From sequence record NZ_CP024444.1: a stretch of 64,000 nucleotides of DNA. One strand, 5' to 3'. The notes beneath the pieces are model-generated. The model did no database searches, was not told where the DNA came from, and saw nothing but the letters and a program-made list of their open reading frames with translations. Positions 35,608 to 61,204 of this stretch are shown here, in pieces (positions within the stretch are counted from its first letter, which is position 1; every line of letters starts with the position of its first letter). The stretch is from a plasmid. The translations under genes and the position numbers were made by a program.

Positions 35608-35720
35608 AGAATTCGGCCGATCTTCTGAACCGTCCTAGTTTTATCAGAGACAGGTTTACTTGAGTCAGGCAGCATAGCCTGACGGAATTAATGAACAATA
35701 GTACATATTTTCTGCATCTA

Positions 35721-40905: not shown

Positions 40906-40931
40906 GACATTTATCCCTCTATTTAAAAAAC

Positions 40932-41212: not shown

Positions 41213-41233
41213 AAAACTAACCTTTGCGCAAAT

Positions 41234-43665: not shown

Positions 43666-43686
43666 ACAACCCAATAATTAACAACC

Positions 43687-43967
43687 ATGACCACGGCTTT
43701 TGGTGGTGATGGTTGCAAGCTTTTCAGGCAATCATTCCCACGGCTTTTGGTGGGTATGAGGCCCTCTTGTCTTAGCTCGGATAGTCAAGGCTGGCAAGTA
43801 TGAAACGCAGGCAATCGCCTACGGATCATGCGGCTTGATGACTTATCGCGTTAGCAGGAAGTCAGCAAGACCATGAAGCCGTCAGCGAGTGACAAGAGTA
43901 ATACTGCCAAGACTGACGTTGCTGGCGTCTTTTTGCCAGCAATCCGCCAAAGTCTTTATCAGTTTAA
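43687..43967. repeat. 281 bp non-coding repeat, copy B
   Basis: Near-identical to 40932-41212. In both copies it sits immediately distal to a conserved promoter module. Confidence 0.8.
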
Positions 43968-44656
43968 TCACCACGGCTTACCAACTAACCAATAACACCA
44001 ACTAACCTAACATCTTGCCCATCCATAAAATCCACATCAGCCTAAAACACCACAATAGACACCACCATGGCAAAACCTTATGCTAGAACCATAATAGCCT
44101 CTACTGCATTAAGTATATATGCACTAACAAAGGTGACTTACCGGGTAACCACTTATGGCTAGTACATCACGCCAATATCAACCTATCATCGATACCAAAC
44201 TCACCAAGCTTGGGCTAAAAAGTCAGGTAAACCAGTTCATTAAACTAACTGCCATAATCATGGTAATGCCAACAGTGATAGCAAATTATCTCGTCACACT
44301 GCTAACTATTCATAAAAAAGCGAATCGATTAAGACTGCAGGCGCAATTGCCGATACCGACGTTAAAGCAGGCTTATCTTCTGCTTATCAAAGCAAACGAC
44401 GTGTAAACCTGACAAGGTCTTAACCGTACTATAAAAGCACCTAAATAGCCTACCTGACTAAAGCCGTTGTATGGGGGTATCTATAAGTAACGGCTACGAG
44501 CAATAGATTATCCAATCAATGCCTAAGCCAGTTAACTTCCACTTTGTTTTAGCGATAACTTGATGTAGGCTGCCAAACCACACGCCAGTCTTGCCATTAA
44601 CCGCTGCCCATAAAAAACCCTAGTGCGATGACTAGGGCTATTGGGTGGTAAGTGGG

Positions 44657-45043: not shown

Positions 45044-45333
45044 ACGTGTTTATCCTTTTGGTTGGGGTTGGTTGCGAGCCTATCTCGTTTCCATGTGCTA
45101 ATAATAACGCTTTTAGCGTGTTTAATCAAGCGGTTTAACCGTGTTTATTGGTATTTTCAGATGAACGGTAACCGAAAAATGCCGACCCTACCCACCCATA
45201 AGTACGACCCATTTGCACTAGCCATCACTTGAAAATAGCACCAATCATGCCTGCCAGCTGTGCCCATCAACCACGCCAGTCAACAATAAAAAAACCTGTC
45301 GTCTGACAGGTCTTAGTAAGTGTGGGGGTGGCA

Positions 45334-46266
45334 TTAGGCGCGTGAGAGTAAAGCTGGTGTGTTTTGCTCAAATGGCGTCACGATGTAGCTAACGTTGCCA
45401 TTAAAATCAGCACTACCAATGCATGATAACGGCTTACCAATGAAATTGTCTTTAATCGGTCTGCCTTTGGCGTCACTGGTAACCGCCTGTACCAATAAGA
45501 TGGTATCAAAGTTTTCGCTATTCATGCCAAGCTTGACCACTTGGTAGAACAGTTTGGCATCGGGTTTGCTAGTTGAGCTTGCCTGTAAAAAATCACCGAC
45601 CTTTAATTGCTCGTTGTATTGGTTTTCTACCATATCCAAGCTTAGGGTGAGCTGCTTGTAAACTTCAATCAAGGCTTCAAACAAGTCAGCCGGGTTATCA
45701 AAATGGCAAGCACTGCTTTGGTTAAATACGGCAATACCGATAGGGCGTTTACCGTCATAAGCCACAATCATCATGATACTAGCGTTCAAGTAGCTTAAAA
45801 TTACATCGGTCCAGGTGGCGTTGAATTTTTCTTTGACCAGTGCGCGACGTCCCTGTACCAATTGATTGCTTTCAAAGTTGTTGCGTGACTCGTTATCGTC
45901 GACGACAAGTTTACCCTTTGGGCTTAATTGGTTGTAGGCAACTTGGGCTTGCTTGATGGTAAATTGGTCAATGTATTTGACATACTGACTAATTTCTTCA
46001 ATGGTGGTTATCATGTCAGGATAAAACAAGGTATTTAGGTTTTTAAGCGGCTGCCCGGTGGGTACGTGCATCTTAGACTGGTTGTCGTGCGTTCTAATCA
46101 CAGTAAAAGGTGGGGTCAGTAGTGTGCCTTTGCTGTGGATTTTGCCGTCATCATTGACCAGCGCATTGTGCCCAGCTTTGCTTTCAGCCATCCAGCTGCC
46201 CAGCATCAGCTTATGATTTTTACTGTATTTGAAGTTATCAATAATAGCGATTAGGGTGTTTTTCAT
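45334..46266 (-). CDS. unknown-function protein, member 1 of a six-paralog family (about 310-350 aa)
   Basis: Shares the family blocks GTLLTPPFTV, SIMMIVAYDGKRPIGIAVFN and the C-terminal IGKPLSCIG block with the 47605, 48760, 52447, 54211 and 60245 genes. Confidence 0.7.
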   Translation of the reverse strand: MKNTLIAIIDNFKYSKNHKLMLGSWMAESKAGHNALVNDDGKIHSKGTLLTPPFTVIRTHDNQSKMHVPTGQPLKNLNTLFYPDMITTIEEISQYVKYIDQFTIKQAQVAYNQLSPKGKLVVDDNESRNNFESNQLVQGRRALVKEKFNATWTDVILSYLNASIMMIVAYDGKRPIGIAVFNQSSACHFDNPADLFEALIEVYKQLTLSLDMVENQYNEQLKVGDFLQASSTSKPDAKLFYQVVKLGMNSENFDTILLVQAVTSDAKGRPIKDNFIGKPLSCIGSADFNGNVSYIVTPFEQNTPALLSRA

Positions 46267-46557
46267 GATGGTTATCCTTTTGGTTGGGGTTATGGTGTCG
46301 AGCCTATCTCGTTTCCATGTACTTATAATAACGCTTTAACCGTGTATAGTCAAGCGGTTTAACCGTTTATATACAAGCTATTCGACGGATGGCTGGCGCA
46401 GGCGCGATGTGTGTTAACCCACACTCCCCCATACATAAGCTCTTATAGCACTAGCTATCGCTTGAATTAGATCAGCTCGCCTGTCCAATACCCACCGATG
46501 CGATGGGCATAAAAAAACTTGCTAGGGTTAACTAGCAAGTCTGTTGTTTGGGTGGGC

Positions 46558-47316
46558 TTATGCTAAGGGACGTTTTTTGCTCTTGGATTTATCATTTTTA
46601 CGGCATTCATTTAATGCCACAAAACTTTTAGCAAGGGTTAGGATGCCTTCTTTATATACTTTCCAAAAATCTAAGGCATCGAATTCCATTCGGGCTATCT
46701 CGCTACTGCTAAAATTTTCCCATTCTTCGATGGTGTGGCATTTACAGCCGATACGGATTTTGTCATTCATCAAGCTGATAAACCACTGATAATCATATAA
46801 ACACAATACCGGATAAGGTAGCTTGGCGAAGGTGATATTTGCACCACGAAAAATGGCTTGTTCAATGTCGCATTGGGTGAAGTCGGTTTGTTTCAATGAT
46901 GCGTTGGTAAAGTTGGTATTAATGGTATTGGCATTGGTAAAAATTGAGCAATCAAGGTTACAGCCATCAAGATGGGTTAATTCTAGGTTGCTATCCGTAA
47001 AGTTACAATTGCTAAGGTTGGCTTGATAAAAATAAGCTTGGCGTAAATCTGCGTTGGTAAAATTTACCCGACGTCCTTTTACATTGGTCATGTTGGTTTG
47101 GCATAAGTTAGCATTTTCAAAATTGGCATTGCTGATATCGCAGTTAATAAGGCTTGCACCGAATAAATTTGCACCGCTTAGGTTTGCACCTGTTAAATCA
47201 AACCCTTTTAAGTCCATGTCTTTTAAGTCGATGTTGCGTAAGTCGGCTTTAACTAGGGTGTCTAAATCAAGTGTGATAGTCGATTTGTTGTATACATGCT
47301 TGATGGTGATAGCCAT
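46558..47316 (-). CDS. pentapeptide-repeat protein with conserved C-terminal Cys module (RIGCKCHTIEEWENF)
   Basis: Tandem A(N/D)LxG pentapeptides throughout. The C-terminal module is shared with three paralogs. Confidence 0.85.
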   Translation of the reverse strand: MAITIKHVYNKSTITLDLDTLVKADLRNIDLKDMDLKGFDLTGANLSGANLFGASLINCDISNANFENANLCQTNMTNVKGRRVNFTNADLRQAYFYQANLSNCNFTDSNLELTHLDGCNLDCSIFTNANTINTNFTNASLKQTDFTQCDIEQAIFRGANITFAKLPYPVLCLYDYQWFISLMNDKIRIGCKCHTIEEWENFSSSEIARMEFDALDFWKVYKEGILTLAKSFVALNECRKNDKSKSKKRPLA

Positions 47317-47319
47317 GAG

Positions 47320-47476
47320 AGTATTCCTTTTGGTTGGGTGATGGTAGCGAGCCTATCTCGTTTCCATGTGCTTATAATAACGCTTTAACCGTGTATAATC
47401 AAGCGGTTTAACCGTGTTTTTACCCATTTTCCGATAAACGGTAAAAGCGTTTTTCGGGTCGGCTGACACGTTTCCC
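47320..47476 (-). promoter_or_regulatory. conserved promoter/5'UTR/RBS module
   Basis: The -35 TTGATT (plus 47397-47402) and -10 TATTAT (plus 47374-47379) are separated by a 17 nt spacer. Confidence 0.7.
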
Positions 47477-47604
47477 TCCAGGTAAGAATGTTTTTTTGAT
47501 ATAGCGATCGTTTGATATAGGCCATCACGCACGCCCAAACAGCGAGCCAAAAAAAACGCCTTACTATCAAGTAAAGCGTTGGGTGGGTGGGTCAAGGCTT
47601 ATCG

Positions 47605-48648
47605 CTAAATACCGTATTTGGACTTAAAAGTTTCAGTCGGAAAGTTGGTCATGACCTTGTCATGTTTGGCAGTCACCATGATTTGTGTATTAACGACAGT
47701 CACAAAACATTCAATCGGTGGTGTGATGTATGCGCCTTGTTTTGGCATAGTGGTCGCTAACATGGGGTTGTCGGCATCTTCAACAAAACCACTAATACCA
47801 CGGATGATTAACGTTTGACCACCATAAAAATCATCGTTGACCACATCAATCACTTCATAGTTTTGACATAAGCCCATTAATAGCCATTTTGAATAAGCAC
47901 TGCTATAACAAATGATATCACCCACCTGAAGTGACGGGTTTGATTGGGTGTTAAGTGATGGCTTGATAGCATGACCAAGTTCGACATATAAATCTGCCAT
48001 TAATTTTAAAATCAAGTTTTGACCTTTGTATTCAATTACGCCACGATGGGTAAACAACACAAGCCCACGATGGGTACTAGCGGTGTTATAGGCAAATACC
48101 ATAAACTCACCATCACGGTAGACGCTTAACAATTCGCTATCAGCATAGTCAAGGTCGGTACAGATGTAGTTTTGGCGAGCAAGGTACAATGGGTCGTTTA
48201 AAAATGCGTTGGGGTCTTGGGGGTGTTGGGCAATATCAAGCACCGCTTTGTCAGTGGCTTTGTAGGCATCATGGAATGAATTGAGCATATTTTGGTCAAG
48301 GGTTTGGACGTATTGTTCCATCTTAGTTTTGCAATCATATACCACATGGTAACTGCTCACCCATTCACCTTTATAAAAGGATGGATATTTACCACTATTG
48401 GGGTTTTCCATCACCCAAATGGCGGTTTCTTTGCTGTATTTAATCTCGCTATTGGGTAAAAACATCGCTTTGGTTACGATAAAGCCGTTAGTGCCGTTTT
48501 GTCTGATTAATGGCTTGATGCTATCAATGCGGTCTTGGATTTCATCAATCAGTTGGGCGTGGTCATGGCTTGTAATCACGCGCTTAGTAAGGTCGTAAAA
48601 ACGTGGGATTGATGTGTTTTGTGGTTTGAGTAAAACGATATCGCTCAT
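47605..48648 (-). CDS. unknown-function protein, paralog family member 2
   Basis: 347 aa. Blocks GEFMVFAYNTASTHRGLVLF and GDIICYSS...LIIRGISGF. Confidence 0.65.
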   Translation of the reverse strand: MSDIVLLKPQNTSIPRFYDLTKRVITSHDHAQLIDEIQDRIDSIKPLIRQNGTNGFIVTKAMFLPNSEIKYSKETAIWVMENPNSGKYPSFYKGEWVSSYHVVYDCKTKMEQYVQTLDQNMLNSFHDAYKATDKAVLDIAQHPQDPNAFLNDPLYLARQNYICTDLDYADSELLSVYRDGEFMVFAYNTASTHRGLVLFTHRGVIEYKGQNLILKLMADLYVELGHAIKPSLNTQSNPSLQVGDIICYSSAYSKWLLMGLCQNYEVIDVVNDDFYGGQTLIIRGISGFVEDADNPMLATTMPKQGAYITPPIECFVTVVNTQIMVTAKHDKVMTNFPTETFKSKYGI

Positions 48649-48759
48649 GGGGTTATCCTTTTGGTTGGGGTCGGATGCGAGCCTATCTCGCTGTCCATGA
48701 GAGTATTATAACGGTTTTACCGTGTATAATCAAGCGGTAAAACCGTTTTTTATGGTTAA

Positions 48760-49746
48760 TTAAGCCACTGCCGGATGATGGTTTGGGTGGGTACCATAAA
48801 CATCAAGCACATTTAAGGCGTGTCTTGTCCCTGCCAGTCCATTAAATATCACCACACCATCCGCGCCTGTGTACAAGCAGATATCAAGGGGTGCGCCAAT
48901 ATACTTACCGCGAATAGGTTGGAACTTTTTATCAAACATAATCGCTTGCATCTTGCCTGTCTGCATCTGCCCACTATTTGGCGTATCAAGGTGGGTGACT
49001 TCATAAAAATGGGTATGAGAGCATTCGTCCATGGCATTGGCTAAAATCGTACCTATCTCAATTGGCTTGCTGTCATTGGCGTGGCTTAATGCCTTTTGGG
49101 TATCGACGTGGTCTTCAATCGCATCATATAGGTGCGCCATGACCAATAGAATACTATTCCACCCGTGATAAAAATAGGTGGCATGGGGCAAGCACAAGGC
49201 ATAGCCTTTTTTGTGTTCTTCGGTGGTGGCAAACAATAAAATATCATCATCAAGCCAACTGCCAATTAACTCAACATAGCGAGCATTAAAATAGCTTTTT
49301 ACGCCCTCTAAGCGATTGCTATACAATGGGTGCAAGTGGCTGTGGATGTGGTAGCCTTGCTTTTGGACAATGGCTTTGGTCTGTTCGCTTGCATCCTTGA
49401 GCCTTTCTTCAAAGTCAGTGATTTGCTGACGGTCACGCTCAAGCACGAATTGACGAGCCGACCACAACTCCCCAAAAAAGTAACTAGGCGTGGTGTATTC
49501 AGCATCAAGTAACGGGCAATCATTGCGTGACGTGAGCACATAACGCCCATTGTTATTGACCGATAGCAAACAAGGCGGCTGAAATAGCGTACCATCACAA
49601 AAATAGACGCCATCTTGAACGTGGCTTTTTTTGGTGACCCGTTGAAAAGGTTGTGAGCAAGTTTTGCTTAGTCCGCGCATTTCTTCGCATAGGGCTAGAT
49701 GGTCGGTGCTGTGTACGATACTTTTCATCAAAACATATAAATTCAT
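48760..49746 (-). CDS. unknown-function protein, paralog family member 3
   Basis: 328 aa. Blocks DGTLFQPP, DDILLFATTEEHKKGYALCL and RGKYIGAPLDICLY. Co-transcribed with the small ORF at 49823-49939. Confidence 0.65.
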   Translation of the reverse strand: MNLYVLMKSIVHSTDHLALCEEMRGLSKTCSQPFQRVTKKSHVQDGVYFCDGTLFQPPCLLSVNNNGRYVLTSRNDCPLLDAEYTTPSYFFGELWSARQFVLERDRQQITDFEERLKDASEQTKAIVQKQGYHIHSHLHPLYSNRLEGVKSYFNARYVELIGSWLDDDILLFATTEEHKKGYALCLPHATYFYHGWNSILLVMAHLYDAIEDHVDTQKALSHANDSKPIEIGTILANAMDECSHTHFYEVTHLDTPNSGQMQTGKMQAIMFDKKFQPIRGKYIGAPLDICLYTGADGVVIFNGLAGTRHALNVLDVYGTHPNHHPAVA

Positions 49747-49822
49747 GGCAATTATCCTATTGGTTTTAAGTGGTGGGTGGGCGGTAAGTGAGCCTTTCTC
49801 AACTAACCGTTAATCAGCATTA

Positions 49823-49939
49823 TTATTTTTTAAGCACGCGTTTAACACTGGGGGCGACTTTGCGTTGAGCCGTTCCCAAATAGCGATACATCATTAAAGA
49901 CAATGGGTAAATAAAAGCACTGATTTGTAAAAAATTCAT
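49823..49939 (-). CDS. small hydrophobic peptide (38 aa) MNFLQISAFIYPLSLMMYRYLGTAQRKVAPSVKRVLKK
   Basis: Unannotated ORF directly after a conserved RBS. One TM with a basic tail. Confidence 0.35.
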   Translation of the reverse strand: MNFLQISAFIYPLSLMMYRYLGTAQRKVAPSVKRVLKK

Positions 49940-49942
49940 GGC

Positions 49943-50095
49943 CGTTCCTTTTGGTTGGGTGATGGTAGCAAGCCTATCTCGCTGTCCATGTAGTTATAAT
50001 AACGCTTTAACCGTGTATAATCAAGCGGTTTAACCGTGTTTTTACCCATTTTCCGATAAACGGTAAAAGCGTTTTTCGGGTCGGCTGACACGTTT
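49943..50095 (-). promoter_or_regulatory. conserved promoter/5'UTR/RBS module
   Basis: Same module, driving the small ORF and the 48760 gene. Confidence 0.65.
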
Positions 50096-50228
50096 CCCTA
50101 CAATTTACTATCCTTGTACTAGCTATGGCTTGATGTAGATCAGCTCGCCTGCCTAACGCCTGCCAAAATCGGTACAAAAAAAGCCACAATACGATGATTG
50201 TAGCTTTGGGTGGGTGGGCGTGATGCGA

Positions 50229-50975
50229 CTAGGCGACTTGCTTTTTAGATGGCGTGATTTTTTTAAGCTGTTGCTCACTAAACGCGGTAGCGATGGCTAA
50301 AATTTCCTCTTTGAATTCTTCCCAAAACTCAATGGCGTAGTCATCCATATCAATGATTTCGTTACCATCAAAATTACGCCATTCTTCAATGCTATAACAT
50401 TTACAGCCAATGCGTAGCATATCGTCACATACGCTGATAAACCACTCATAGTTATACAGGCAAAGCAATTTTTTGGGTAATACGGTGCAATCTAACACGG
50501 TATAGTCAAAAACCGTTCGACGAATATCCGACTTCATCAAATTAGCTTCAGTTAAATTGGCACAGGTAAATTGCGTGGTGTCCAAATTGGTGTTGTTAAA
50601 GACCACCCATTGAAAATTTGAACGGTATAAATTGGATTTGCTTAAATTCACATTGTCAAAAATTGCATGTTTAAAGTCGGCATTGGAAGCCACCACCATT
50701 GCCATATTCGCATTACTAAAGTCGGCATTGCCTGCCCTTGAGCCATTTAAATTGGCGTGAGTCATGTTGGCATGACTAAAATTAGCTTCAAACAGTTCGC
50801 AGTCGGTCATAATAGCCCGTGATAAATTGGCACCGCTAAAATTTGCCTTGGATAAATCAACACTGGTAAAAATAGCACCAGCTAAGTTTTGACCGCTAAA
50901 GTCATAGCCTTGCAGGGTATCAGCATCGATAACTAGGTCGTCTTTCTTGCCAAAAAATTTAATGGTAATACTCAT
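50229..50975 (-). CDS. pentapeptide-repeat protein with C-terminal Cys module (RIGCKCYSIEEWRNF)
   Basis: 248 aa, paralog of 46558. Confidence 0.85.
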   Translation of the reverse strand: MSITIKFFGKKDDLVIDADTLQGYDFSGQNLAGAIFTSVDLSKANFSGANLSRAIMTDCELFEANFSHANMTHANLNGSRAGNADFSNANMAMVVASNADFKHAIFDNVNLSKSNLYRSNFQWVVFNNTNLDTTQFTCANLTEANLMKSDIRRTVFDYTVLDCTVLPKKLLCLYNYEWFISVCDDMLRIGCKCYSIEEWRNFDGNEIIDMDDYAIEFWEEFKEEILAIATAFSEQQLKKITPSKKQVA

Positions 50976-51313
50976 GGGTGTGTCCTTTTGGTTGGGGGTC
51001 GGAATTGAGCCTATCTCGTTTCCATGATGCTATTATAACGGTTTTAGCGTGTTTAATATAACGGTTTTAGCGTTTATTTATCGATTTTCCGATAAACGGT
51101 TTTAACGTTCACCACGCCCACCACCCACCTACCCCGACCCTTAGTCATGCTTGCCTTAGAGTTCGCTTGCGCTAGGTGCATCCTTGCTACCGGATAAAAC
51201 CATCGCCAAAAAAAATGCTATACAGGTGTATAGCATTGACTGGTGTGACTAAGCTTCATTAGACTAGACGGCATCAGGCATGTCATGACTGCCGTATGGG
51301 TTGGCATAGTCAG

Positions 51314-52141
51314 TTAGCTGACTTGTTTTTGTCCCTGAAAGATGCTCACGCCCATACCGACATCGTCATGTTTTTGTTGATATAAGCCGTCTTTAAATTG
51401 GTAGTCTTTTTCATACGAATGGTAGAAAGCACAGGCGATTTCGAGTATTTCATATTTATGCCAACGCCAAAACGATAAGGCTTCATCGCCCATATTCTCA
51501 ATTTGCTCTGCGTTAAAGTCTTTCCATTGTTTGATGGTATGACACTGGCATCCAATACGGATGGTATCGGCACAAATAAAAATTGGCCAGTTGTAATGAT
51601 ACAAAAACATCACCTTAAAAGGAAATAAGGCGGTCATGATGTTTGTTCCCCAAAAAATAGCGTAGCGGATGTCTGCTTGCTGAAAGTCGGCACAGCTAAT
51701 AGTGGCGTTAAAAAAATTGGTTGCTAGTAAATCTGCCTTATCAAAACTTGCTTGCACAAGACTTGCGCCCGTGAATTGGGCATACTGACAGTTGGCATCA
51801 TGAAAATTACTAAAATTAAAATTGGCATGACTGGCATGAATGCTTTTGAGATTGGCGTGTTTAAAGCGTCCCTTCAGTAGCGTTGCGCTAGTAAAATTAG
51901 CCCCTTGTAAATCAGCGTTTTCAAAATTGACATGATTTAACGTCGCCTTATCAAAACGCGCATACTGTAAATTGCATCCGCTAAAATTGGCATTGGTTAA
52001 GTCCATGCCGATAAAGTCAGCACCTTGTAAATTGGCACCGCTAAAATCATGCCCCACAAGACTGTCGCCCTCGATGGTTGCAAGGATGGCTTTTGATTTG
52101 AAGGAATTATGCGTAAGGTAGCTTTGAATTTCGATGGTCAT
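51314..52141 (-). CDS. pentapeptide-repeat protein with C-terminal Cys module (RIGCQCHTIKQWKDF)
   Basis: 275 aa paralog. Confidence 0.85.
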   Translation of the reverse strand: MTIEIQSYLTHNSFKSKAILATIEGDSLVGHDFSGANLQGADFIGMDLTNANFSGCNLQYARFDKATLNHVNFENADLQGANFTSATLLKGRFKHANLKSIHASHANFNFSNFHDANCQYAQFTGASLVQASFDKADLLATNFFNATISCADFQQADIRYAIFWGTNIMTALFPFKVMFLYHYNWPIFICADTIRIGCQCHTIKQWKDFNAEQIENMGDEALSFWRWHKYEILEIACAFYHSYEKDYQFKDGLYQQKHDDVGMGVSIFQGQKQVS

Positions 52142-52446
52142 ACTTTTATCCTTTTGGTTGGGTGTTGGAATTGAGCCTTTCTCGTTTCCATGATGCTATT
52201 ATAACGGTTTTAGCGTGTTTAATATAGCTGTTTAACCGTGTTTTTACTCATTTTCCGACGAACGGTAAAACCGTTTTTAGGTTGGCTGGCACGTTTCCCC
52301 GTACTTAATGACCCTTGTACTAGCCATATCTTGAGATATGTACTAGCCATATCTTGAGATAGCCGATCGGCACCGACTGCCGTTTGTTAGCCATCAGCCA
52401 CAAAAAAGCATGGTGTGGTTACCATGCTTGGGCATATCAAGTCATC

Positions 52447-53445
52447 TTAGCGTGGGACGGCTTCAACTACCCTTAATCGGGCATTGTACAGCAAAAGCGA
52501 CTGCTGACTATCTACTTTTAAATAACCGTTGACGTGTTTGGCAATACAAGCAATCTCACTGCCTAAAAATGCATTGGTGATTGGATTGTTTAGGCTGTCA
52601 TAGGCAATACAGCGCAGTTTAATGGCGTTGCCTTGTTTGCTGATGTTCTCGCCTACTTGGGTGATTTGGTAGTATTGGCTCGGGTTGGTGTTGTTAAACC
52701 GTTCAAGTCTTACAATACTACCGACACCGATATCTAGCATATTTTCCGGTTGTTGGTTGTTGTAAAGAAATAATTTGGCGGTTTCACAAAAACCATAGAG
52801 TTTGCTCATGACGTCTAAAATGCTATTAAGTCCATAGCTTAAATACATACTGTTGTCGCCATACAGCGCATAGCCTTGTGAATAGCTTTCTTTGGTGGGC
52901 GTGGTGCAAGCAAATAGCATGATGGTATCATTGGCATAACTGCCGATAAGTTCAGCTTGCGTATTTTGAAAATACTGCTTGGTGAATGCTAAACGTGGGG
53001 CATGCAGTGGGTGAGCTTGGCTTTGCTCGCTCACCTGGTTGTTTTGTGCCAAGTTGCGCACGTCTTTACTGGCGTTTTCATACGCAAATTGAAAGCATCC
53101 GATTGCGCTTAAATCATCACATTTGATACGCAACAGGGCAATTTCTTCGCTCAAAAAGCGGTGATTTTTTTGTAGCTCGGTACAATCGATTAAATACTCG
53201 CCATTGATGGGTTGTACGGTGTAAAAATCTTCTTCCCCCACGACATTACTACGCTCAAGGGTTGTGATAGGCTGTAACAAGGTGGGCGTGGTGACAAAAC
53301 CGGATGCAGTTTTTTCGATGGTGGCACGGTGCTGTTTCTCAAGCTTGAATAACTGCTTAATGAGTGCCGAATGATTATCGCTTGCCATGACAAGACGCAT
53401 GACTTGTTCAGGGGTGATAGGGGCTTGGGTGCTATGGCTTGGCAT
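52447..53445 (-). CDS. unknown-function protein, paralog family member 4
   Basis: 333 aa after moving the start to the MPSHSTQ Met at 53445. Blocks DTIMLFACTTPTKESYSQGYALYG and IKLRCIAYDSLNNPI. Confidence 0.65.
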   Translation of the reverse strand: MPSHSTQAPITPEQVMRLVMASDNHSALIKQLFKLEKQHRATIEKTASGFVTTPTLLQPITTLERSNVVGEEDFYTVQPINGEYLIDCTELQKNHRFLSEEIALLRIKCDDLSAIGCFQFAYENASKDVRNLAQNNQVSEQSQAHPLHAPRLAFTKQYFQNTQAELIGSYANDTIMLFACTTPTKESYSQGYALYGDNSMYLSYGLNSILDVMSKLYGFCETAKLFLYNNQQPENMLDIGVGSIVRLERFNNTNPSQYYQITQVGENISKQGNAIKLRCIAYDSLNNPITNAFLGSEIACIAKHVNGYLKVDSQQSLLLYNARLRVVEAVPR

Positions 53446-53754
53446 AATCTTTTTCCTTTTGGTTGGGGTCGGATGTGAGCCTATCTCACAATCCATGTGC
53501 TTATAATAACGCTTTAACCGTGTATAATAAAGCGGTATTAGCGTTTTTCTACCCATTTTCCGATGAACGGTAAAAGCGTTTTTAAAGTCGGCTGGCACGT
53601 TTCCCTGTACTTTAGGGGGTTTACCTGATTTAGTGATAGCTTGGGCTAATACTGGGTTAGTAGGCTTGGTCGCAGCGGTATGCCAATCGGCATTAAAAGC
53701 TTGGGCAACAAAAAACCCATGCACTGGCACGGGTTTGTTTGGGTGGGCGTGGGG

Positions 53755-53874
53755 TTACATTCTGGCACAGCGAAACACATAATAAATCACGGCAATGAAT
53801 AATACCAAAACAACGTTGCTGTCAAATAAAGACATAATGGCATTAAAGGCTTCGAGTTGTGATGAATATTGCAT
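53755..53874 (-). CDS. small hydrophobic peptide (39 aa) MQYSSQLEAFNAIMSLFDSNVVLVLFIAVIYYVFRCARM
   Basis: Unannotated ORF with its own conserved module (53878-54010). C-terminal TM helix. Confidence 0.3.
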   Translation of the reverse strand: MQYSSQLEAFNAIMSLFDSNVVLVLFIAVIYYVFRCARM

Positions 53875-54210
53875 ATTTTTTCCTTTTGGGTTGGGTGTAG
53901 GAATTGAGCCTTTCTCGTTTCCATGATGCTATTATAACGGTTTAACCGTGTATAATCAAGCGGTATTAGCGTGTATCTATGGTTTTCCGACGAACGGTAA
54001 AACCGTTTTATCGGGCAAATCCTAGCCCGACCGCCCTAAAATTCATGTTATTTACTTGCGTTAGTGATAGTTTGACTTAGGGTGCACCAGCCACAGATGC
54101 ACTAGCCGCGCCTGTTGCCCAGCTTGCCAGCAAAAAAACCACCAACCGATTTGGCGGTCAGTGGTCGGGCAGAATTTACTAGCTTGGATAGCCGCTAAAA
54201 TTGCCTGTGC

Positions 54211-55224
54211 TTAGTGTGCGTTAGGCTCATACTTGGCAAGTTCAGTAATGCCACCAAGCGTACTGCCAGCAAATGGCATTAGGTAGCAAGCAATATAGCC
54301 TTCACGATATAGGTGGACATACGCATTCATTTTGGGCGAAATCATACTATTTTTAACAGGCAGGGATTTGTCGTCATGCAAGATAGCGCGTAGGGTTATC
54401 ATAACGGCTTGTTTGTTTAATGTGGGACTTACCTCTACCACCCGGTAGTAACGATAACAGCGGATGTTGAGATTGCGAAAATCTTCAAAAATATCACCCA
54501 CCTGTACCAGCTTTTGAAATGGCGCATTTTCAATAATCACCGCAGCTGCGATGACTTGGTACAATCGGCACATGACGGTAAAACAATGTTGCAACCCACT
54601 AAAAAACTCGATGCCATCAGCATGGCATAGGGTGAAACCAGGGTAATCATGATTGGCGGTCATAAATACCATAATCGATCCATCCAAATAGCTACCCACC
54701 AAATTGGTAACATTCATATTTTGCGCTGAAAAATAACGTTCAGCAATTTTTAGTCGTCCATCATGCAAGGTATCTAGCACCGACGTCACTTCGCTGGCAT
54801 GATTGTTCTGAATTGCCATTATGGTTGCATCATACGCCTTGTTATACGCATCTTTAAACTCTTGGATGGCGTTATGGTCGGTTTCTTTCACATATTTTTT
54901 AGCCTGTGCCAACGACTCAAAGTAACGATACGGTTTAGAGTCGATGCGACTTATTGAGTACATATACGCTCGCCAGTCCGTCTTGCCCATCCATTGTTTT
55001 TTAATGTTGTCACGGTTTAGGGTGAATGGTGGCAGTAATAACGTACCGCTACAGACATAATCACTCCCCTGTTTGGTAAGATTGTAATCATACGCTTGGG
55101 TGGCACTTTGCAAGTCTTCAATCAATTCATCATGGTTGCGACTGGAAAATAAAGCGACACACAGGTCAACTAAGGTAGCAAAACCTTTGGTGGTTGCCGC
55201 GGCTTGGGCAATGGCAGTAGACAT
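54211..55224 (-). CDS. unknown-function protein, paralog family member 5
   Basis: 338 aa after moving the start to the MSTAIAQ Met at 55224. Blocks SGTLLLPPFTL, GSIMVFMTANHDYPGFTLCHADGIEFFSGL and GDIFEDFRNL. Confidence 0.65.
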   Translation of the reverse strand: MSTAIAQAAATTKGFATLVDLCVALFSSRNHDELIEDLQSATQAYDYNLTKQGSDYVCSGTLLLPPFTLNRDNIKKQWMGKTDWRAYMYSISRIDSKPYRYFESLAQAKKYVKETDHNAIQEFKDAYNKAYDATIMAIQNNHASEVTSVLDTLHDGRLKIAERYFSAQNMNVTNLVGSYLDGSIMVFMTANHDYPGFTLCHADGIEFFSGLQHCFTVMCRLYQVIAAAVIIENAPFQKLVQVGDIFEDFRNLNIRCYRYYRVVEVSPTLNKQAVMITLRAILHDDKSLPVKNSMISPKMNAYVHLYREGYIACYLMPFAGSTLGGITELAKYEPNAH

Positions 55225-55588
55225 AATTTTTATCCTTTTGGTCGGGGTCGGACGCAAGCCTATCTCGCTATCCATATAGCTATAATAACGGTTTAACCGT
55301 GTATAATCAAGCGGTTTAACCGTGTTTTTACCCGTTTTCCGATAAACGGTAAAACCGTTTTTCGGGTCGGCTGACACGTTCCCCCGTACTTTAGGATGCT
55401 TTTTTTGATGTAGTAATAACTTGGTTTAGATCGGTTCACTCGCCCATCGACGACAACTTGCCAGCAACAGGCAATAAAAAACCCACTGTCATGTGACAGT
55501 GGGGGGATTTTCCCAACCACGAGAAAACTAGAAAATTCGGTAATATTTAGCTTGCCAGCATCGCCAGCTGTGGACTTATCGCTTCAAT

Positions 55589-55978
55589 TTAGTTAAACGC
55601 TTGGGCAATCTTAGTGCCACGGGTGTTAATTTCTTGTTCGATGTCGCTAACTATCTTGGTAATTGATACATTGCCACCGTTATTAAAGACACGCAGATTG
55701 TCTTTTAACTCGTCGAAACTACTTTCAATATAAAATTTGCCATCTTGCCAAGCGATGTCAATGTTGAACGCTTTATTGCCAACAATCACCAAAACGTGCG
55801 ATTTATAACGCCCTGTACGTGTCTTAACCGTTTTTCGCTCAATTTTAAATACGACGTTCACATAACTGCCGTTTGGCAAACACACGGTAGAGTCAACCAG
55901 GTTTGGGTTATCAATGAGTTTACCCTTCACTTTGATTTTGCGTAGGCTGTCGATACTAAAAACTGGAATAGTTGACAT
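55589..55978 (-). CDS. hypothetical protein
   Basis: 130 aa after moving the start to the MSTIPVF Met at 55978. Confidence 0.55.
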   Translation of the reverse strand: MSTIPVFSIDSLRKIKVKGKLIDNPNLVDSTVCLPNGSYVNVVFKIERKTVKTRTGRYKSHVLVIVGNKAFNIDIAWQDGKFYIESSFDELKDNLRVFNNGGNVSITKIVSDIEQEINTRGTKIAQAFN

Positions 55979-56234
55979 ACATTTTCCTGTGGGTTGGGTG
56001 CCGGAATTGAGCCTATCTCGTTTCCATGATGTTATTATAACGGTTTTAGCGTGTAAATGCAAGCGGTTTAACCGTTTATTTAATAATATTTAGTACGCCA
56101 GCTCATTGACGTATCAAGCATGGATTGATAACACCCGTATTTACTAGGTCAGTATGATAATTAATTGCGTTACCACCATGCCAAAAATTAAAAGGACTGC
56201 AATAGCAGTCCTAGTGTTTGATTAGATGCGATGA

Positions 56235-56753
56235 CTATAACGACATGCCGAGTGCATCATGTACGCTGTTAGTGATGATTTTCATCATGTCGGGGTTTTT
56301 GCTAATTTCTCTTAGGATGTTGCTAACCATGGTTTCCTGTAAATCGATTTCAGGATGCTCACCATCATATAAGATAAATTGCAAATCGGCATCATTTTGC
56401 AAGGCTTCAGGGATTTCAAAACGGATGATATTGTCTTCGTTTAACTCCACCATAGAAGTACCCACTGGAACATAGCTCAATTCATTGACGTCACGTAACA
56501 TATCGTCGATTAGCGAATTGGTAAGGTCTATGAATGGGATAAAATCAGGAAGGGCTTGTACACACGCCACAAAATGAATCTCTATACCTGACTCGGTGAC
56601 AAGGTTTAACTCCATAATACGACGGGCAATGACATGGTCAAAACCATACGGGCGTGCTTCAGGAATGATACCTTTAAAGCGAGTGTAGCTGTCAATTGAC
56701 GTCACAGTCAGTTTGGCGTTGCTTAAATTGTCGATGATGTCTTGGATAGTCAT
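56235..56753 (-). CDS. hypothetical protein
   Basis: 172 aa. Conserved module at 56757-56905. Confidence 0.6.
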   Translation of the reverse strand: MTIQDIIDNLSNAKLTVTSIDSYTRFKGIIPEARPYGFDHVIARRIMELNLVTESGIEIHFVACVQALPDFIPFIDLTNSLIDDMLRDVNELSYVPVGTSMVELNEDNIIRFEIPEALQNDADLQFILYDGEHPEIDLQETMVSNILREISKNPDMMKIITNSVHDALGMSL

Positions 56754-57053
56754 ATTTTTTCCTTTTGGTTGGGTGTAGGAATTGAGCCTTTCTCGTTTCC
56801 ATGTAGTTATAATAACGGTTTAACCGTGCATAGTCAAGCGGTTTAACCGTGTTTTTACCCATTTTCCGACGAACGGTAAAAGCGTTTTTCGGGTCGGCTG
56901 GCACGTTTCCCCATACGTTACGATGCTTTTTTTGCATTAGTGATAACTTGATATAGGATGTTGCCGAGCGTACCCATAAGGCATGCCAAACCTACCTGTC
57001 AAAGCAAAAAACCCTAGTCTTTGGCTAGGGTCTTAATTGTGGGGTTTAAGTGC

Positions 57054-57428
57054 TTAGGCGGCATTTAGGTAGGTTGCATAGATTTGGCTTAAGGTGGTTG
57101 GCTTAAAGTCTAAGTCAAGTTTCATGCTGTCGATTTCACAAAGTTCAACCAAGCTAATATAACCAAGCTCGCTAGGCCAATTGTGCAAACGCACTAAACC
57201 GAATGCTTGATATTGTGGCTCTTCCATGTCTTTTTCAGTGATGAACCAATGGCAAGTATAACCGTTTGGTGTTTCAACCATGTAATGCAAGTGTGCCACC
57301 GCTTCATCGCCTAGCCCGTCTTGCTCATAGGTTTTTGGCATGGTGTCAAAGATTTCGTCAATTTTGGCTTTTTGCTCTTCAGTCAGTGCGTTTAATTGGC
57401 GTGGTGGTACATAAGCTGAATTTTTCAT
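57054..57428 (-). CDS. hypothetical protein
   Basis: 125 aa after moving the start to the MKNSAYV Met at 57428. Confidence 0.55.
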   Translation of the reverse strand: MKNSAYVPPRQLNALTEEQKAKIDEIFDTMPKTYEQDGLGDEAVAHLHYMVETPNGYTCHWFITEKDMEEPQYQAFGLVRLHNWPSELGYISLVELCEIDSMKLDLDFKPTTLSQIYATYLNAA

Positions 57429-57718
57429 AATCTTTTCCTTTTGGGTTGGGTTTAGGAATTGAGCCTTTCTCGTTTCCATGTGCTTATAATAACGGTTTTA
57501 GCGTGTATAATCAAGCGGTTTTAGCGTTTATTTGATGATTTCCCGACGAACGGTAAAAGCGTTTTTTGGGAATGACTGACCTGTTCGCCCCATATGTCAG
57601 GGTGTTTTTTTTGCATTAGTGATGGCTTGATTTAGACCAGCTGGCTTACCGCCAAACGTTGGCGACAAAAAAACCTTGCAAGCTGTGCAAGCAAGGTCTT
57701 AATAATTTCACTGGCTGG

Positions 57719-58426
57719 CTAGAATGTTGACATTTTAGCAAAGGCAATCATGCGCTTTTTGTAGTCGTGCCAAAAATCCAGCGCGTCACTGCTCATTTTA
57801 TCAATGTCTTCATCGCTAAAGTTTTCCCATGTTTCGACAAGGTGGCATTGGCAACCAATTCTTAACATGCCATGGCGTGCGCTGACAAACCATTGATAGC
57901 CATATAGCATCATCACATCACCATCGATATGAGCATACTCTAGTCGTGAGCCGTTGAAGATGGTTGTATCAATATTGGTATTGTCCAATTTGGCATGTTT
58001 AAGCTCACAATCTGCCAAGCTAGTATGATGCAAATTTGCAAAGTCAAAATTAGCGATGCGTAGGTCGCAGTCGGTTATCAGGGCTTTGGTAAGGTTTGCT
58101 TGAAAGAAATTGGTTTCCATCAATTCGGCATGATGGGCGGATGCATGCAATAAATTGGCTTTGCTAAAGTCGGCATTACTGGCTTTGGCGTTGGTTAATG
58201 ATGCGCCCACCAAGTTTGCATTGCTAAAGTTTGCCCACTCGATACAACTATCATTGAACTGTGCGCCTGTTAAGTTTGCACCGCTAAAATTGGTCTTGCT
58301 TAAGTGCAAGTTACTTAAATTGGCATTTTGTAAGTCCAAGTTGCTTAAGTCTGCGCCTGCAAGCGTATCAAGCTCTAACGTGATAATTGGGTTGCCTGTG
58401 TTTTTATGCTCGATAGTAATCGCCAT
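57719..58426 (-). CDS. pentapeptide-repeat protein with C-terminal Cys module (RIGCQCHLVETWENF)
   Basis: 236 aa after moving the start to the MAITIEH Met at 58426. Confidence 0.85.
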   Translation of the reverse strand: MAITIEHKNTGNPIITLELDTLAGADLSNLDLQNANLSNLHLSKTNFSGANLTGAQFNDSCIEWANFSNANLVGASLTNAKASNADFSKANLLHASAHHAELMETNFFQANLTKALITDCDLRIANFDFANLHHTSLADCELKHAKLDNTNIDTTIFNGSRLEYAHIDGDVMMLYGYQWFVSARHGMLRIGCQCHLVETWENFSDEDIDKMSSDALDFWHDYKKRMIAFAKMSTF

Positions 58427-58720
58427 GATTTTTTTCCTTTTGGTTGGGTGTTGGAATTGAGCCTTTCTCGTTTCCATGTGCTTATAATAACGCTTTAACC
58501 GTGTATAATCAAGCGGTTTTAGCGTTTATTTGGGGGTTTTCCGACGAACGGTAAAACCGTTTTTAGACTCGGCTGGCATGTTTCCCCGTACCTAAGGGGG
58601 TTTATCTGATTTAGTGATAACTTGATGTAGTCCATCACGCTCGCCTGTCGACGACAACTTGCCAGCAGGCAATAAAAAACCCACCTAATGACAAGGTGGG
58701 TATTATCCGGTAGTAATCAA

Positions 58721-59335
58721 TTATTTGGCTTGGGTGGCTGCCACATAAAAATATGCGCCCTCTTTGCCGATATGGTGTCGAAACTGCTCACCAAAGCGTT
58801 TAACCGTGCTTTCGGTAATCGGGAATGCTTTGCCACGATGACTAAATGTTATGATTTTCTCGTCGATGTGTTGCGGTAGGTTTAATTCAGGGGCATCACT
58901 TAGCACAAATAGCATGCGTTCACGTTCAGCGGTGACGTGTTGTTTGGCTTGGTTGTATGACGCTTTTTTATCGGCATGGGCTTGCTTGTTTTTGGCGTTG
59001 CTGTCAATGAGTGTTTGTATTTGCTCACAGCTCACAGCACCGTTGTTGGTCGCAAGTTGGATAGCCGTGTTAATGGTCTTGGTATCAAACCAACCTTTTT
59101 GGATATGTTCATTCGCCCATTTAAAATAGTCTTGGGTGCGCTTGGTGTTGTTCATGTTATAGCGATTGCGATTGGCGATTTCTTTGTCGCGCATTCGAGA
59201 AATCACATTATTGGGCGCACCACTACCACGAAAATTTTCAATGAGCGCAGACACGTCACTACCAAAACGCCCATTATTCAATAGGTTGTTAATTTGAGTT
59301 TCCGACTCAAGGATATCTGATACAAAAGTATTCAT
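58721..59335 (-). CDS. hypothetical protein
   Basis: 204 aa. Its upstream module is truncated (UTR and RBS present, promoter half missing), so it is probably co-transcribed with ssb. Confidence 0.6.
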   Translation of the reverse strand: MNTFVSDILESETQINNLLNNGRFGSDVSALIENFRGSGAPNNVISRMRDKEIANRNRYNMNNTKRTQDYFKWANEHIQKGWFDTKTINTAIQLATNNGAVSCEQIQTLIDSNAKNKQAHADKKASYNQAKQHVTAERERMLFVLSDAPELNLPQHIDEKIITFSHRGKAFPITESTVKRFGEQFRHHIGKEGAYFYVAATQAK

Positions 59336-59422
59336 AAAAACGTTCCTTTTGGTTGGGGTTGGTTGCGAGCCTATCTCGTTTCCATAATGAAATTATAGCG
59401 GTTTAAGGGATTAAGTGCTTAC

Positions 59423-59917
59423 TTAAACTTTGGCTTTTGCCTTAACTAAAAAGGCTTCAGGGATGCCATCATCTTGTTGTACCATTGGTTGCTGATTAGC
59501 TTGTACCATTGGTTGGCTATTGGCAACAGGTTGGCTTGCATACTCATCTTGGTCAGGGAATGGGATATTGGGTCGTCCACCACCGCTACTGCCTAGCATT
59601 TGCAAAGAGTCGCCATAGATTTCAGTCACATAGCGTTCAATGTTGTTGCTGTCCGTGTATTTGCGGTTGCGTAGTTCACCCTCAATAAAAACGCCAGCAC
59701 CTTTTTTTAGGTAATTTTGGGCGATTTCTGCGAGTCGGTTGAACAACACCACGCGATGCCATTCGGTACGCTCTTTTTTCTCTTGGGTAGTCTTGTCTGT
59801 CCAAGTTTTCGTAGTAGCCATTGAAATGGTTGCGCACACGCCACCACTTGGCAATTGACGTACATCAGGGTCAGCACCTAAGTTGCCGATTAAAATTACT
59901 TTGTTTACACCTTTCAT
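59423..59917 (-). CDS. ssb: single-stranded DNA-binding protein (plasmid-type SSB)
   Basis: OB-fold N-terminus VNKVILIGNLGADPDVRQLPSGG...RVVLFNRLAE. A Gly/Pro/Gln-rich tail ends in an acidic DDGIPEAF-like motif. Start moved to the MKGVNKV Met at 59917. Confidence 0.88.
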   Translation of the reverse strand: MKGVNKVILIGNLGADPDVRQLPSGGVCATISMATTKTWTDKTTQEKKERTEWHRVVLFNRLAEIAQNYLKKGAGVFIEGELRNRKYTDSNNIERYVTEIYGDSLQMLGSSGGGRPNIPFPDQDEYASQPVANSQPMVQANQQPMVQQDDGIPEAFLVKAKAKV

Positions 59918-59920
59918 AAC

Positions 59921-60075
59921 CTTATCCTTTTTAAAGAGTGTTCTAAACCAAGTGAGCCTATCTCGTCTTGATGATTTCATTATAACGGTTTAACCGTGTA
60001 TAATCAAGCGGTTTAACCGTTTTTTATGATTTACCGATAAACGGTAATAGCGCGGATAAACGGTTTTCAAGGGTT
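59921..60075 (-). promoter_or_regulatory. conserved promoter/5'UTR/RBS module (ssb copy)
   Basis: Same module as the other units. Confidence 0.65.
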
Positions 60076-60244
60076 TGGACACGCGGCCCTACAGTTAATC
60101 GCTTTTTGCTTTTCACCTTTGCATTAGCGACCACTTGATATAGGTTGTTCCTGCCAGCGGTAGCCAAGCAACGGGGTGCTAAAAATGGCAATAAAAAAAC
60201 CCTAGTAAGCGTTAACTAGGGTTATTTCGTTATCCGGTGGTGGT

Positions 60245-61204
60245 TTAAGCTGCCAATTTGTCATCAATTGATGGTGATTGAGTCCGTAATACCGCATATC
60301 TTAGATTATTATTGACCGTAGCATGGGCTTCATAGCGTTTGTCTTCGCTGTTATAAGTCACAAAGCAAGGAATATCGCCTGTTAAGTATTTACCACGGAT
60401 TGGCGTGCCGTGGGCGTCAAAAGCAATACAGCGGATAGTAATTTCACCGCCTAGCTTGGTTGATAGCATATTAAGTTGGGTCACTTCAAAATAACGACGT
60501 GGTCTATCGCTATCATACTTAACGTTTTCAAAAATAGTGCCCAGCTCGATAGCATGAATTGGCTTGTCAACCTTGCGCAAATTATCAGATACCGCATAAT
60601 AAATAAATCGCATAGCTCGAAGAATTTTATTTAGCCCACTAAAAAACTCCATGCCGTTTTGGTGAAATACTACTAGCCCTGTCTTGCCCTGTTCATAGCA
60701 GGCAAACAACATGATATCACCGCCCATGTAGCAAGCCTCAAGCTCAACCTGTTGCGATTTCATGTGCTGACAAGCGAATTCATAACGGGCTTGGTAAAGT
60801 GGAAGATTTTTGCTGTTGGCATCGATTTGGTTATGCTCGGCAATGGCTCTGACGTTTTCGTGACTAATCACATCATAGCCCAGTGAAAAAATCTGCATGT
60901 TATTCCCATTCTTGATGAATTTTTTACAGTCTGCTAGTTTCCGCATACGCACTTTATAAGTGGGGTGATCAATTTGCGGTAAGCATAACGATGGGTCATC
61001 ACAAGTAATTTGCCATTCGCCATCATTATTTTTATGTATGGTGACCGCAGGGGTTAACAGGGTTGCGGCACAAGTGTACCCAACACCATCTTTTTTATTT
61101 TTAAAGACGTTGGGGTGTTTTTCACTTAGCGAATTTAACTGCTCATGTAGGTCATGATGGTTGGTGCTGGTAACCACTAATTTAACAATGTCTGAAAGTT
61201 GCAT
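60245..61204 (-). CDS. unknown-function protein, paralog family member 6
   Basis: 319 aa. Blocks AATLLTPAVTI, GDIMLFACYEQGKTGLVVFHQNGMEFFSGLNKIL and ITIRCIAFDAHGTPIRGKY. Confidence 0.7.
   Translation of the reverse strand: MQLSDIVKLVVTSTNHHDLHEQLNSLSEKHPNVFKNKKDGVGYTCAATLLTPAVTIHKNNDGEWQITCDDPSLCLPQIDHPTYKVRMRKLADCKKFIKNGNNMQIFSLGYDVISHENVRAIAEHNQIDANSKNLPLYQARYEFACQHMKSQQVELEACYMGGDIMLFACYEQGKTGLVVFHQNGMEFFSGLNKILRAMRFIYYAVSDNLRKVDKPIHAIELGTIFENVKYDSDRPRRYFEVTQLNMLSTKLGGEITIRCIAFDAHGTPIRGKYLTGDIPCFVTYNSEDKRYEAHATVNNNLRYAVLRTQSPSIDDKLAA

Follow-up and report, generated by a model that had tools for sequence, protein, structure and literature searches.

The six paralogous genes

The DNA analysed here is a stretch of 64,000 nucleotides (nt) from a plasmid (sequence record NZ_CP024444.1), hereafter the window, and its subject is a set of six related genes, P1 to P6, embedded in an array that covers 40037-63760 on the minus strand and consists of 24 copies of one promoter cassette and their genes, all cassette-driven genes being co-oriented. 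The region 45000-62000 matches pMOXF1, a 248-kb plasmid of Moraxella osloensis (CP040258.1), at 97.5% identity, and the annotation of pMOXF1 names all six genes as hypothetical proteins. A first reading by a model, made from the letters alone (the original prediction), had described them as divergent copies of an uncharacterised family, possibly engaged in an arms race. The six open reading frames (ORFs) that it listed are present on the minus strand: P1 (310 amino acids, aa; 45334-46266), P2 (347 aa; 47605-48648), P3 (328 aa; 48760-49746), P4 (332 aa; 52447-53445), P5 (337 aa; 54211-55224) and P6 (319 aa; 60245-61204). The proteins are near neutral, with isoelectric points (pI) of 5.5-7.6 and net charges of -8.7 to +1.6.

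In all six genes the start ATG sits 5-9 nt past an AAAGGA/AGGA ribosome-binding site. Longer ORFs starting with GTG or TTG, as well as the pMOXF1 annotation of P5, reach into the upstream promoter repeat, and for this reason the start codons of the original prediction are preferred; the longer GTG-started ORF of P4 (52447-53730) overlaps its promoter cassette and does not mark the true start. Such over-extended calls (52447-53730, 54211-55377, 42612-43595 and pMOXF1 FEF33_14360) yield spurious common N-termini, for example ...NAFTVYRKMGKNTVKPLDYTRLKRYY..., the true starts being the ATGs associated with a ribosome-binding site.

Regarding the relationship among the six proteins, pairwise blastp gave identities of 18-29% (29-108 bits), close to the 20-30% first estimated. 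P1 and P2 form the weakest pair, bridged by strong links to P5 and P6. Hidden Markov models (HMMs) built from five members recovered the sixth at 108-195 bits (E 1e-33 to 2e-59), where P6 was the most central member (195 bits), followed by P5 (173 bits), P4 (171 bits) and P3 (170 bits), and P1 (110 bits) and P2 (108 bits) were the most divergent; the other 204 ORFs of the window gave no match to these models even at E<10. The MAFFT alignment of the six is collinear and, Met1 apart, nine of its positions are invariant (S, H, P, L, R, G, Y, G and P). The three collinear blocks on which the family had first been proposed are borne out by the MAFFT alignment, describing mainly P3-P6 and fitting only loosely the degenerate versions in P1 and P2, the latter having KAMFLPNSEI at the position of GTLLxPP in the others. 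These alignments and profile matches indicate a genuine paralogous family and not a chance resemblance. No further paralogs were found in the window or in the stretches of pMOXF1 at 188-248 kb.

Orphan status and predicted structure

Searches of Pfam, NCBIfam, PHROGs and PADLOC returned no significant match for the six paralogs, and a sequence profile search of the PDB returned nothing. A word-indexed search of 5.8 billion clusters found copies of P1 and P2 only, and an exhaustive hmmsearch of 1.84 billion representatives, covering about 15 billion proteins, gave six matches, all derived from the same genes, as near-identical full-length copies or as fragments. By tblastn against PLSDB, the family was found in pMOXF1 only. 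At the sensitivity of HMMER, the family thus appears confined to one Moraxella plasmid lineage. As the library searches were empty and no characterised enzyme family was matched, its first description as an uncharacterised family, with no known function assignable, holds.

AlphaFold2 models, for which the input alignment consisted of the six sequences only, showed a topology common to P1 (predicted local distance difference test, pLDDT, 78; predicted template modelling score, pTM, 0.65) and P6 (pLDDT 69.5, pTM 0.62). In the P1 model, the first segment has two N-terminal helices and beta-hairpins carrying GTLLxPP, with an invariant S-x-(N/D)-H opening helix 2, followed by a helical linker that contains PLYxxR (residues 89-148 in P1 numbering). 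The third segment (152-216), a four-strand meander and then a long helix, corresponds to the central block of the original prediction, and the fourth (226-296), a barrel of five or six strands, to its C-terminal block, after which a disordered tail follows. The C-terminal domain is predicted to be an SH3/Tudor-like beta-barrel. As modelled, this four-segment fold has no known whole-chain analogue, and structural matches in BFVD were to phage proteins of about 190 aa and weak (template modelling score 0.25-0.38).

When the family HMM was applied to the rest of the pMOXF1 array, it matched two genes outside the window, aligned to the barrel only, encoding proteins of 124 aa (pMOXF1 record 238781-239155) and 241 aa (239458-240183). 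The 241-aa protein has a wider set of relatives, comprising 85 clusters at 90% identity, mostly of 150-260 aa, which carry no Pfam domain and no name beyond "hypothetical protein". This set has the motif VGDxxxSSWGYEQTN(I/V)DYYQV, in which S, W, G, Q, T and N do not vary across 43 members. It corresponds to phrog_37844, a family of unknown function, and its members score E 1e-18 to 1e-27 on the PHROG profile. By hhalign, the six paralogs matched the phrog_37844-type family with 95.8% probability (E 6.7e-9, over 73 barrel columns) and its long subfamily with 87.6% probability. In the reverse direction, the HMM of the barrel family placed P2, P1, P4 and P5 ahead of all other window ORFs (210 in total), with marginal E values of 0.015-0.94, and none of the six paralogs matched the phrog_37844 profile at E<=1. 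These comparisons indicate a remote homology between the C-terminal barrel of the paralogs and the SSWGYEQTN barrel of phrog_37844. The early statement that the proteins have no known fold can then be kept for the whole chain, but not for the barrel, which appears to have remote kin in a family widespread in leading regions and phages.

The paralogs do not possess the SSWGYEQTN motif, keeping only VGD/IGT and YY(E/Q)V, which flank a variable loop of 9-13 residues. The loop that replaces the motif is the most variable part of the barrel, with a mean pairwise BLOSUM score of -0.73 compared to +0.6 and +1.6 in the flanking strands. The proteins are also longer (310-347 aa, compared to about 110-260 aa in the barrel family), and their N-terminal residues, approximately 220, align to no member of that family and have no detectable relatives.

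Occurrence of the wider barrel family

By tblastn against PLSDB, the barrel family occurs in 2,824 plasmids, 92% of them typed as conjugative, with Klebsiella, Escherichia, Acinetobacter, Salmonella and Xanthomonas as the main hosts. In a pOXA-48-like IncL/M (MPF_I) plasmid, the barrel is a 112-aa ORF (WP_004187354; 6965-7303 of the stretch examined) within the order DUF4942, barrel ORF, Hha, DUF1380, antirestriction, ssb and mobA/traI, which is the leading region, and in an IncI2 mcr-1 plasmid the gene has mipZ/parA, a J-domain gene and small ORFs as neighbours. Similar surroundings were seen in a metagenomic contig, where the barrel gene is two genes from ArdC in a co-oriented array; in a conjugative element, where it adjoins a T4 coupling protein, a large primase and ParA; and in another array, together with SSB, TopA, DUF6927, Nmad5 and ParB_N. 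Barrel genes are also found in phage early-gene clusters, in one case near methyltransferases and an Acb2/Tad1-hairpin protein. Pfam scans found no model for this wider family, and a literature search by its motif or accession found no publication on it. The strong conservation of the SSWGYEQTN barrel suggests an important function.

Promoter cassettes

The 24 cassettes of the array (40037-63760, all on the minus strand) stand before almost every gene. On the gene strand, the cassette starts with an optional inverted repeat, AAAACGGTTTTACCGTT-N6-GGAAAA, and continues with the core AAACACGGTTAAACCGC-TTGAYT-ATACACGGTTAAASCGT-TATWAT, followed 6-8 nt on by GGAAACGAGATAGGCTCAATTCC; it ends with CCCAACCAAAAGGA, 5-9 nt and then the ATG. 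A 13-bp palindrome, ACGSTWWWASCGT (written ACGGTTWAACCGT as an operator target), occurs 39 times, compared to 0.05 expected, all within the array and in several copies per cassette. Its copies extend over the -35 flank and occupy the spacer of the sigma-70-type promoter, which is the position where a repressor would act. The cassette copies are 60-86% identical over 64-247 nt, so that the promoters are copies of one cassette but, contrary to the first description, not identical.

The proposal that each paralog has its own module fits five of the six, having a canonical cassette directly upstream on the minus strand: P1 (46267-46403; TTGACT-17-TATTAT, 13-bp palindromes, hairpin and ribosome-binding site), P2 (48649-48751; a short form without the upstream inverted repeat, beginning 20 nt past the P3 stop codon), P4 (53446-53621), P5 (55225-55400; TTGATT-17-TATTAT and three or four palindromes) and P6 (61205-61342). 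It does not fit P3, whose upstream region (49747-50114, minus strand) retains only a degenerate remnant of the 5' untranslated region (5'UTR), with the core GAGAAAGGCT at 49800. P3 is located behind a 38-aa ORF (49823-49939, minus strand) that is driven by its own canonical cassette (49940-50114), and no terminator lies between P3 and the P2 promoter. Terminator-like hairpins, of which 54 were found and 18 expected, follow the other five paralogs on the minus strand, at 45291-45314 (P1), 47555-47580 (P2), 52406-52429 (P4), 54137-54166 (P5) and 60198-60223 (P6), as well as most other genes.

Approximately 45 nt before the start codons, the 5'UTR forms a hairpin with an invariant GAGAWAGGCT core and the loop ATAGG (for example, at 55245-55275, 53466-53496 and 40066-40096). 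Its outer stem varies in a compensatory manner (GGAA/TTCC, CAAG/CTTG, TGATT/AATCA and GTGAG/CTCAC), with double changes at four stem pairs, and the observed covariation score was reached by 18 of 500 shuffles, which is suggestive of a paired stem, not conclusive. The hairpin could be a stem that stabilises the mRNA or a site of protein binding; Rfam gave no match over the array. A single-strand promoter of the Frpo/ssi type was considered and rejected, as single-stranded folds of three cassettes, on both strands, gave short operator hairpins only (z -1.1 to -3.1).

On pMOXF1, the array has about 40 cassettes over about 43 kb (record ~203-246 kb), and two isolated copies lie elsewhere, one of them upstream of a small ORF (33248-33655), which is followed directly, on the same strand, by a DNA methyltransferase gene. 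A scan for the cassette pattern in one genome per species gave a single chance match, in a Flavobacterium, and a scan of metagenomes returned, apart from two unrelated matches, two pieces of the same plasmid, suggesting that the cassette system is restricted to this lineage at the stringency of the scans. Regarding the regulator, the HTH_3 (Xre-type) protein at 41234-41710 (minus strand) is encoded by the only sizeable gene of the array without its own cassette, downstream of the cassette-driven gene 41956-42318, with which it is apparently co-transcribed; this arrangement makes it a plausible autoregulated repressor acting on the 13-bp palindromes. Altogether, the array has the appearance of a very large regulon made up of monocistronic units under a single repressor.

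Selection and recombination

The ratio of nonsynonymous to synonymous substitution (dN/dS) was obtained from Nei-Gojobori counts against the pMOXF1 orthologues and, as saturation precludes a paralog-versus-paralog estimate, the result holds only for the orthologue time-scale. All six ORFs are intact in both plasmids, which differ by 1-8% in nucleotide sequence. The pooled ratio (pN/pS) was 0.31 for the family, 0.22 for array genes outside the family and 0.43 for the pentapeptide-repeat genes of the array, and the values of the single paralogs were 0.23-0.79, all below 1: 0.68 for P1 (from 11 substitutions), 0.42 for P2, 0.26 for P3 and 0.53 for P4 (from 3 substitutions). The best-powered value is that of P5, which shares 92.5% nucleotide identity with its orthologue (72 substitutions, dS 0.20) and has a dN/dS of 0.23; P5 is under clear purifying selection. 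Intact ORFs in two plasmids and low ratios show that the six are coding genes under constraint. Positive selection at the orthologue level was rejected on these ratios, and the rapid, diversifying evolution first attributed to the family was not seen, its pooled value being like that of its neighbours.

P5 (54211-55224) and 57054-57428 are only about 92% identical to pMOXF1, and all neighbours are 98-100% identical, a pattern that suggests patchy allelic replacement through recombination with a more distant plasmid relative. A metagenomic ORF of 128 aa (P0005) joins the middle of P2 to the C-terminus of P3, being either a recombinant of adjacent paralogs or an assembly chimera.

Plasmid context

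The array adjoins transfer genes of an MPF_I-like type IVB system (Dot/Icm- or IncI-like), located at 12383-19993 and encoding DotM_C, a T2SSE ATPase, T4SS_TraI and DotD, and the window also encodes topA and parM. The transfer genes are separated from the array by an insertion, a cargo island bounded by insertion sequences (about 20.3-40 kb; 20297-40000), which is missing from pMOXF1 and contains a UvrA-like ABC ATPase, NDH-2, an esterase, a Zn-ADH, DUF3422, a glutamate-cysteine ligase and cytochrome bd subunit II. In pMOXF1, genes similar to DotM, DotB, DotC and DotD are present in a transfer region that is otherwise almost entirely uncharacterised. Three ORFs of 515-1031 aa at the start of the window (1078-7619) had no match in Pfam.

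Within the array, ArdC (with ArdcN and MPTase-PolyVal domains; 42612-43508), SSB (59423-59917) and the other cassette-driven genes all lie on the minus strand beside the type IVB genes, as in a leading region. Judging from gene content, the surroundings of the paralogs (ArdC, SSB, pentapeptide-repeat proteins and transfer genes) match what is expected of an establishment or anti-defence region, and it is from this context only that we infer a putative anti-defence activity of the paralogs. The arms-race interpretation of the original prediction receives only partial support, being compatible with the surroundings, although the evolutionary signature on which it was based was not seen.

Interpretation and alternative explanations

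The reading that we favour, with a probability of roughly 45%, is that the six paralogs are functional, anciently diverged and lineage-restricted proteins, produced from a repressor-controlled establishment regulon and acting by binding. In established hosts, the regulon would be held off by a plasmid repressor, possibly the HTH_3 protein (41234-41710). Zygotic induction of leading-region genes is classical, and here, as soon as the plasmid DNA had become double-stranded in a recipient lacking the repressor, all cassettes would fire together, resulting in a burst of ArdC, SSB, pentapeptide-repeat proteins and the six paralogs that would promote plasmid establishment. In the most speculative step, the paralogs would bind host proteins or nucleic-acid-processing complexes stoichiometrically, without catalysis. 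Conservation is concentrated in core strands and helices, the loops being variable between copies; as the conserved positions are mostly core hydrophobic residues, glycine and proline, with no evident catalytic constellation, a mechanism of binding or inhibition is speculatively favoured. The conserved core would then act as a scaffold, and the variable loops, including the one that replaces SSWGYEQTN, would give each copy a different target or target variant.

Several observations weigh against this establishment reading or parts of it. Neither a relaxase nor an oriT was recognised; Pfam was empty on ten large backbone ORFs of pMOXF1 (378-1498 aa), from the transfer region at 153-180 kb of the record, and MOB-suite classified pMOXF1 as non-mobilizable, with no relaxase, so that the label "leading region" follows from gene content and orientation only. 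In the single-stranded folds of three cassettes, the -10 box stays unpaired, and, the cassettes not being Frpo-like, very early expression from single-stranded DNA is not supported. The dN/dS of the family does not differ significantly from that of neighbouring genes (Fisher p=0.26), and the homology to phrog_37844 is limited to about 75 residues, from which the family-defining motif is absent. The invariant polar S, H, R and Y could form an active site, and anti-restriction by DNA mimicry, as in ArdA or Ocr with a pI of about 4, was rejected on the pI of 5.5-7.6 of the paralogs and the lack of a Pfam or NCBIfam match.

A more specific version, which we hold to be rather doubtful, regards the paralogs as a panel of specificity variants. 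Each would neutralise its own factor of host immunity or DNA processing, or one variant of such a factor, and all six would be expressed jointly with ArdC and SSB from the regulon of about 40 cassettes on arrival in a naive cell. As part of this same doubtful proposal, an ancestral leading-region protein with the SSWGYEQTN barrel would have gained the N-terminal module of about 220 residues and lost the motif, after which its loops diversified.

Four other explanations were weighed, and in our ranking each fits the context less well than the establishment reading. Plasmid housekeeping is unlikely, although it would account for the near-neutral pI and the purifying selection; here the paralogs would be nucleoid-associated or other DNA-binding proteins, accessories of replication or partition, or transfer regulators, duplicated for dosage or sub-functionalisation and not for contact with host defences. 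Barrels of the Tudor/SH3/KOW-like type, and the weak AP2/WGR-like structural matches of the paralogs, occur in nucleic-acid-binding proteins, and TopA and ParM are encoded nearby. However, it is rare for functions of this kind to persist in six copies of 20-30% identity, the paralogs show no DNA-binding motif or Pfam match, and the wider barrel family is found among leading- or early-region accessory genes of many unrelated plasmids and phages, not in rep, par or tra cores. It is improbable that the type IVB (Dot/Icm-like) secretion system of the plasmid takes the paralogs as its substrates, so that they would reach the recipient as proteins, or escort the DNA, instead of being synthesised in the recipient.

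Also improbable is that the expansion is a by-product of unequal recombination between cassettes of about 100-250 nt, leaving redundant or decaying copies with no diversification of targets. Every gene is flanked by repeated cassettes, the pentapeptide-repeat family is likewise expanded (four copies) and interleaved, and both the metagenomic P2-P3 hybrid ORF (P0005) and the decay of the cassette at P3 would agree with such a process. Against it, the six ORFs are intact in two plasmids, their dN/dS is below 1 throughout, with P5 clearly constrained, and identities of 18-29% with collinear core blocks still kept point to long independent maintenance. The least probable explanation is that the paralogs protect the host as anti-phage or anti-plasmid defence or exclusion proteins, since, even though large plasmids often carry defence islands and pMOXF1 encodes a type I restriction-modification system and methyltransferases elsewhere, the paralogs had no PADLOC match, their neighbours are genes of anti-restriction and single-strand protection and not of defence, and the related barrel family lies in phage early and plasmid leading regions.

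Comparison with known systems and significance

Repressor-controlled regulons are known from plasmid backbones, such as the KorA/KorB operators of IncP-1 plasmids and the control of ard genes by ArdK/ArdR in IncN and IncW plasmids. Similar to these, the array has one operator type at many promoters, located over the -35 box and the spacer, which suggests a single plasmid repressor, whose control would be lifted when the plasmid enters a naive cell. It differs in the number of units, in its strictly monocistronic form and in the conservation of the whole promoter, 5'UTR and ribosome-binding site, and its repressor is only a candidate.

The proteins of phrog_37844 share with the paralogs the pattern VGD(I/V)-loop-YY(E/Q)V ... 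P(I/V)x..(F/Y)(I/L)G and the kind of genomic setting, which in conjugative plasmids is an accessory array of one orientation that includes ArdC, SSB and antirestriction genes; in phages, these proteins belong to the early regions. Compared to them, the paralogs have no profile match, no SSWGYEQTN, about 220 extra N-terminal residues and six copies on one replicon. With the RNA-polymerase-binding C-terminal Tudor domain of UvrD/PcrA, other SH3-like barrels, and the VirB8/DotI NTF2-like and kinase N-lobe sheets, the profile search of the PDB showed no sequence relationship of the paralogs, and no whole chain matched; the catalytic elements of kinases are absent. The structural scores of the paralogs against all of these folds are such as generic small beta folds commonly give.

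In its organisation, the array resembles the anti-defence islands of leading regions (Samuel et al. 2024, PMC11541004), having one-strand orientation, SSB, an ArdC-type gene, many uncharacterised small or medium ORFs and adjacent transfer genes. Unlike the islands of that study (PMC11541004), it has no Frpo/ssi promoters, but a duplex sigma-70-type promoter for each gene, with palindromes, a 5'UTR hairpin and usually a terminator. The finding is best described as an N-terminally extended, motif-less and six-fold expanded variant of uncharacterised plasmid-establishment accessory genes.

Anti-defence genes are now known to be harboured by the leading regions of conjugative plasmids, where most ORFs are uncharacterised. 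In this setting, the locus offers a constrained orphan family of six members without sequence relatives among about 15 billion proteins, as well as a bridge from this family to a barrel carried by at least 2,824 plasmids, most of them conjugative, among which are pOXA-48-like, IncI2 and further backbones of clinical importance. In addition, the unusually regular regulon of about 40 monocistronic cassettes flags every gene under one switch, giving an explicit list of candidates for establishment functions. If the paralogs were target-specific inhibitors, they would be probes of Moraxellaceae immunity and an example of paralog diversification on a plasmid; if they were a specificity panel, they would constitute a new anti-defence family, and the array a previously undescribed organisation, with duplex promoters under one repressor in place of Frpo. 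We regard the locus as a worthwhile experimental lead and not as a demonstrated new mechanism.

Other genes of the array

The pentapeptide-repeat proteins constitute a second expanded family, interleaved with the six paralogs and encoded on the minus strand by four genes (46558-47316, 50229-50975, 51314-52141 and 57719-58426), with a fifth copy on pMOXF1 (record 38513-39262) beside a second ssb. They have a common non-repeat C-terminal domain, YxYxWF...RIGCxCH(T/S)IxxWxxF, and are possibly DNA-mimic proteins. Several small proteins of the array are strongly acidic (pI 4.1-4.8), and a match to DUF2958 was weak and below threshold (E 0.006, 17.4 bits compared to a cut-off of 21).

Two short hydrophobic ORFs on the minus strand own canonical cassettes: the 38-aa ORF that precedes P3 (49823-49939) and one of 39 aa (53755-53874), which has its own terminator. 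They could encode small membrane peptides or toxins, or be remnants of lost genes. A direct repeat of 288 nt, with 98% identity and far better conserved than the cassettes, occurs at 40926-41213 and 43680-43967, upstream of the cassettes of g40441 and ArdC. Finally, the only annotated plus-strand gene within the array (44155-44406) encodes a hydrophobic protein of 83 aa; it is located between g44657 and the ArdC cassette, where about 1 kb contains no cassette.

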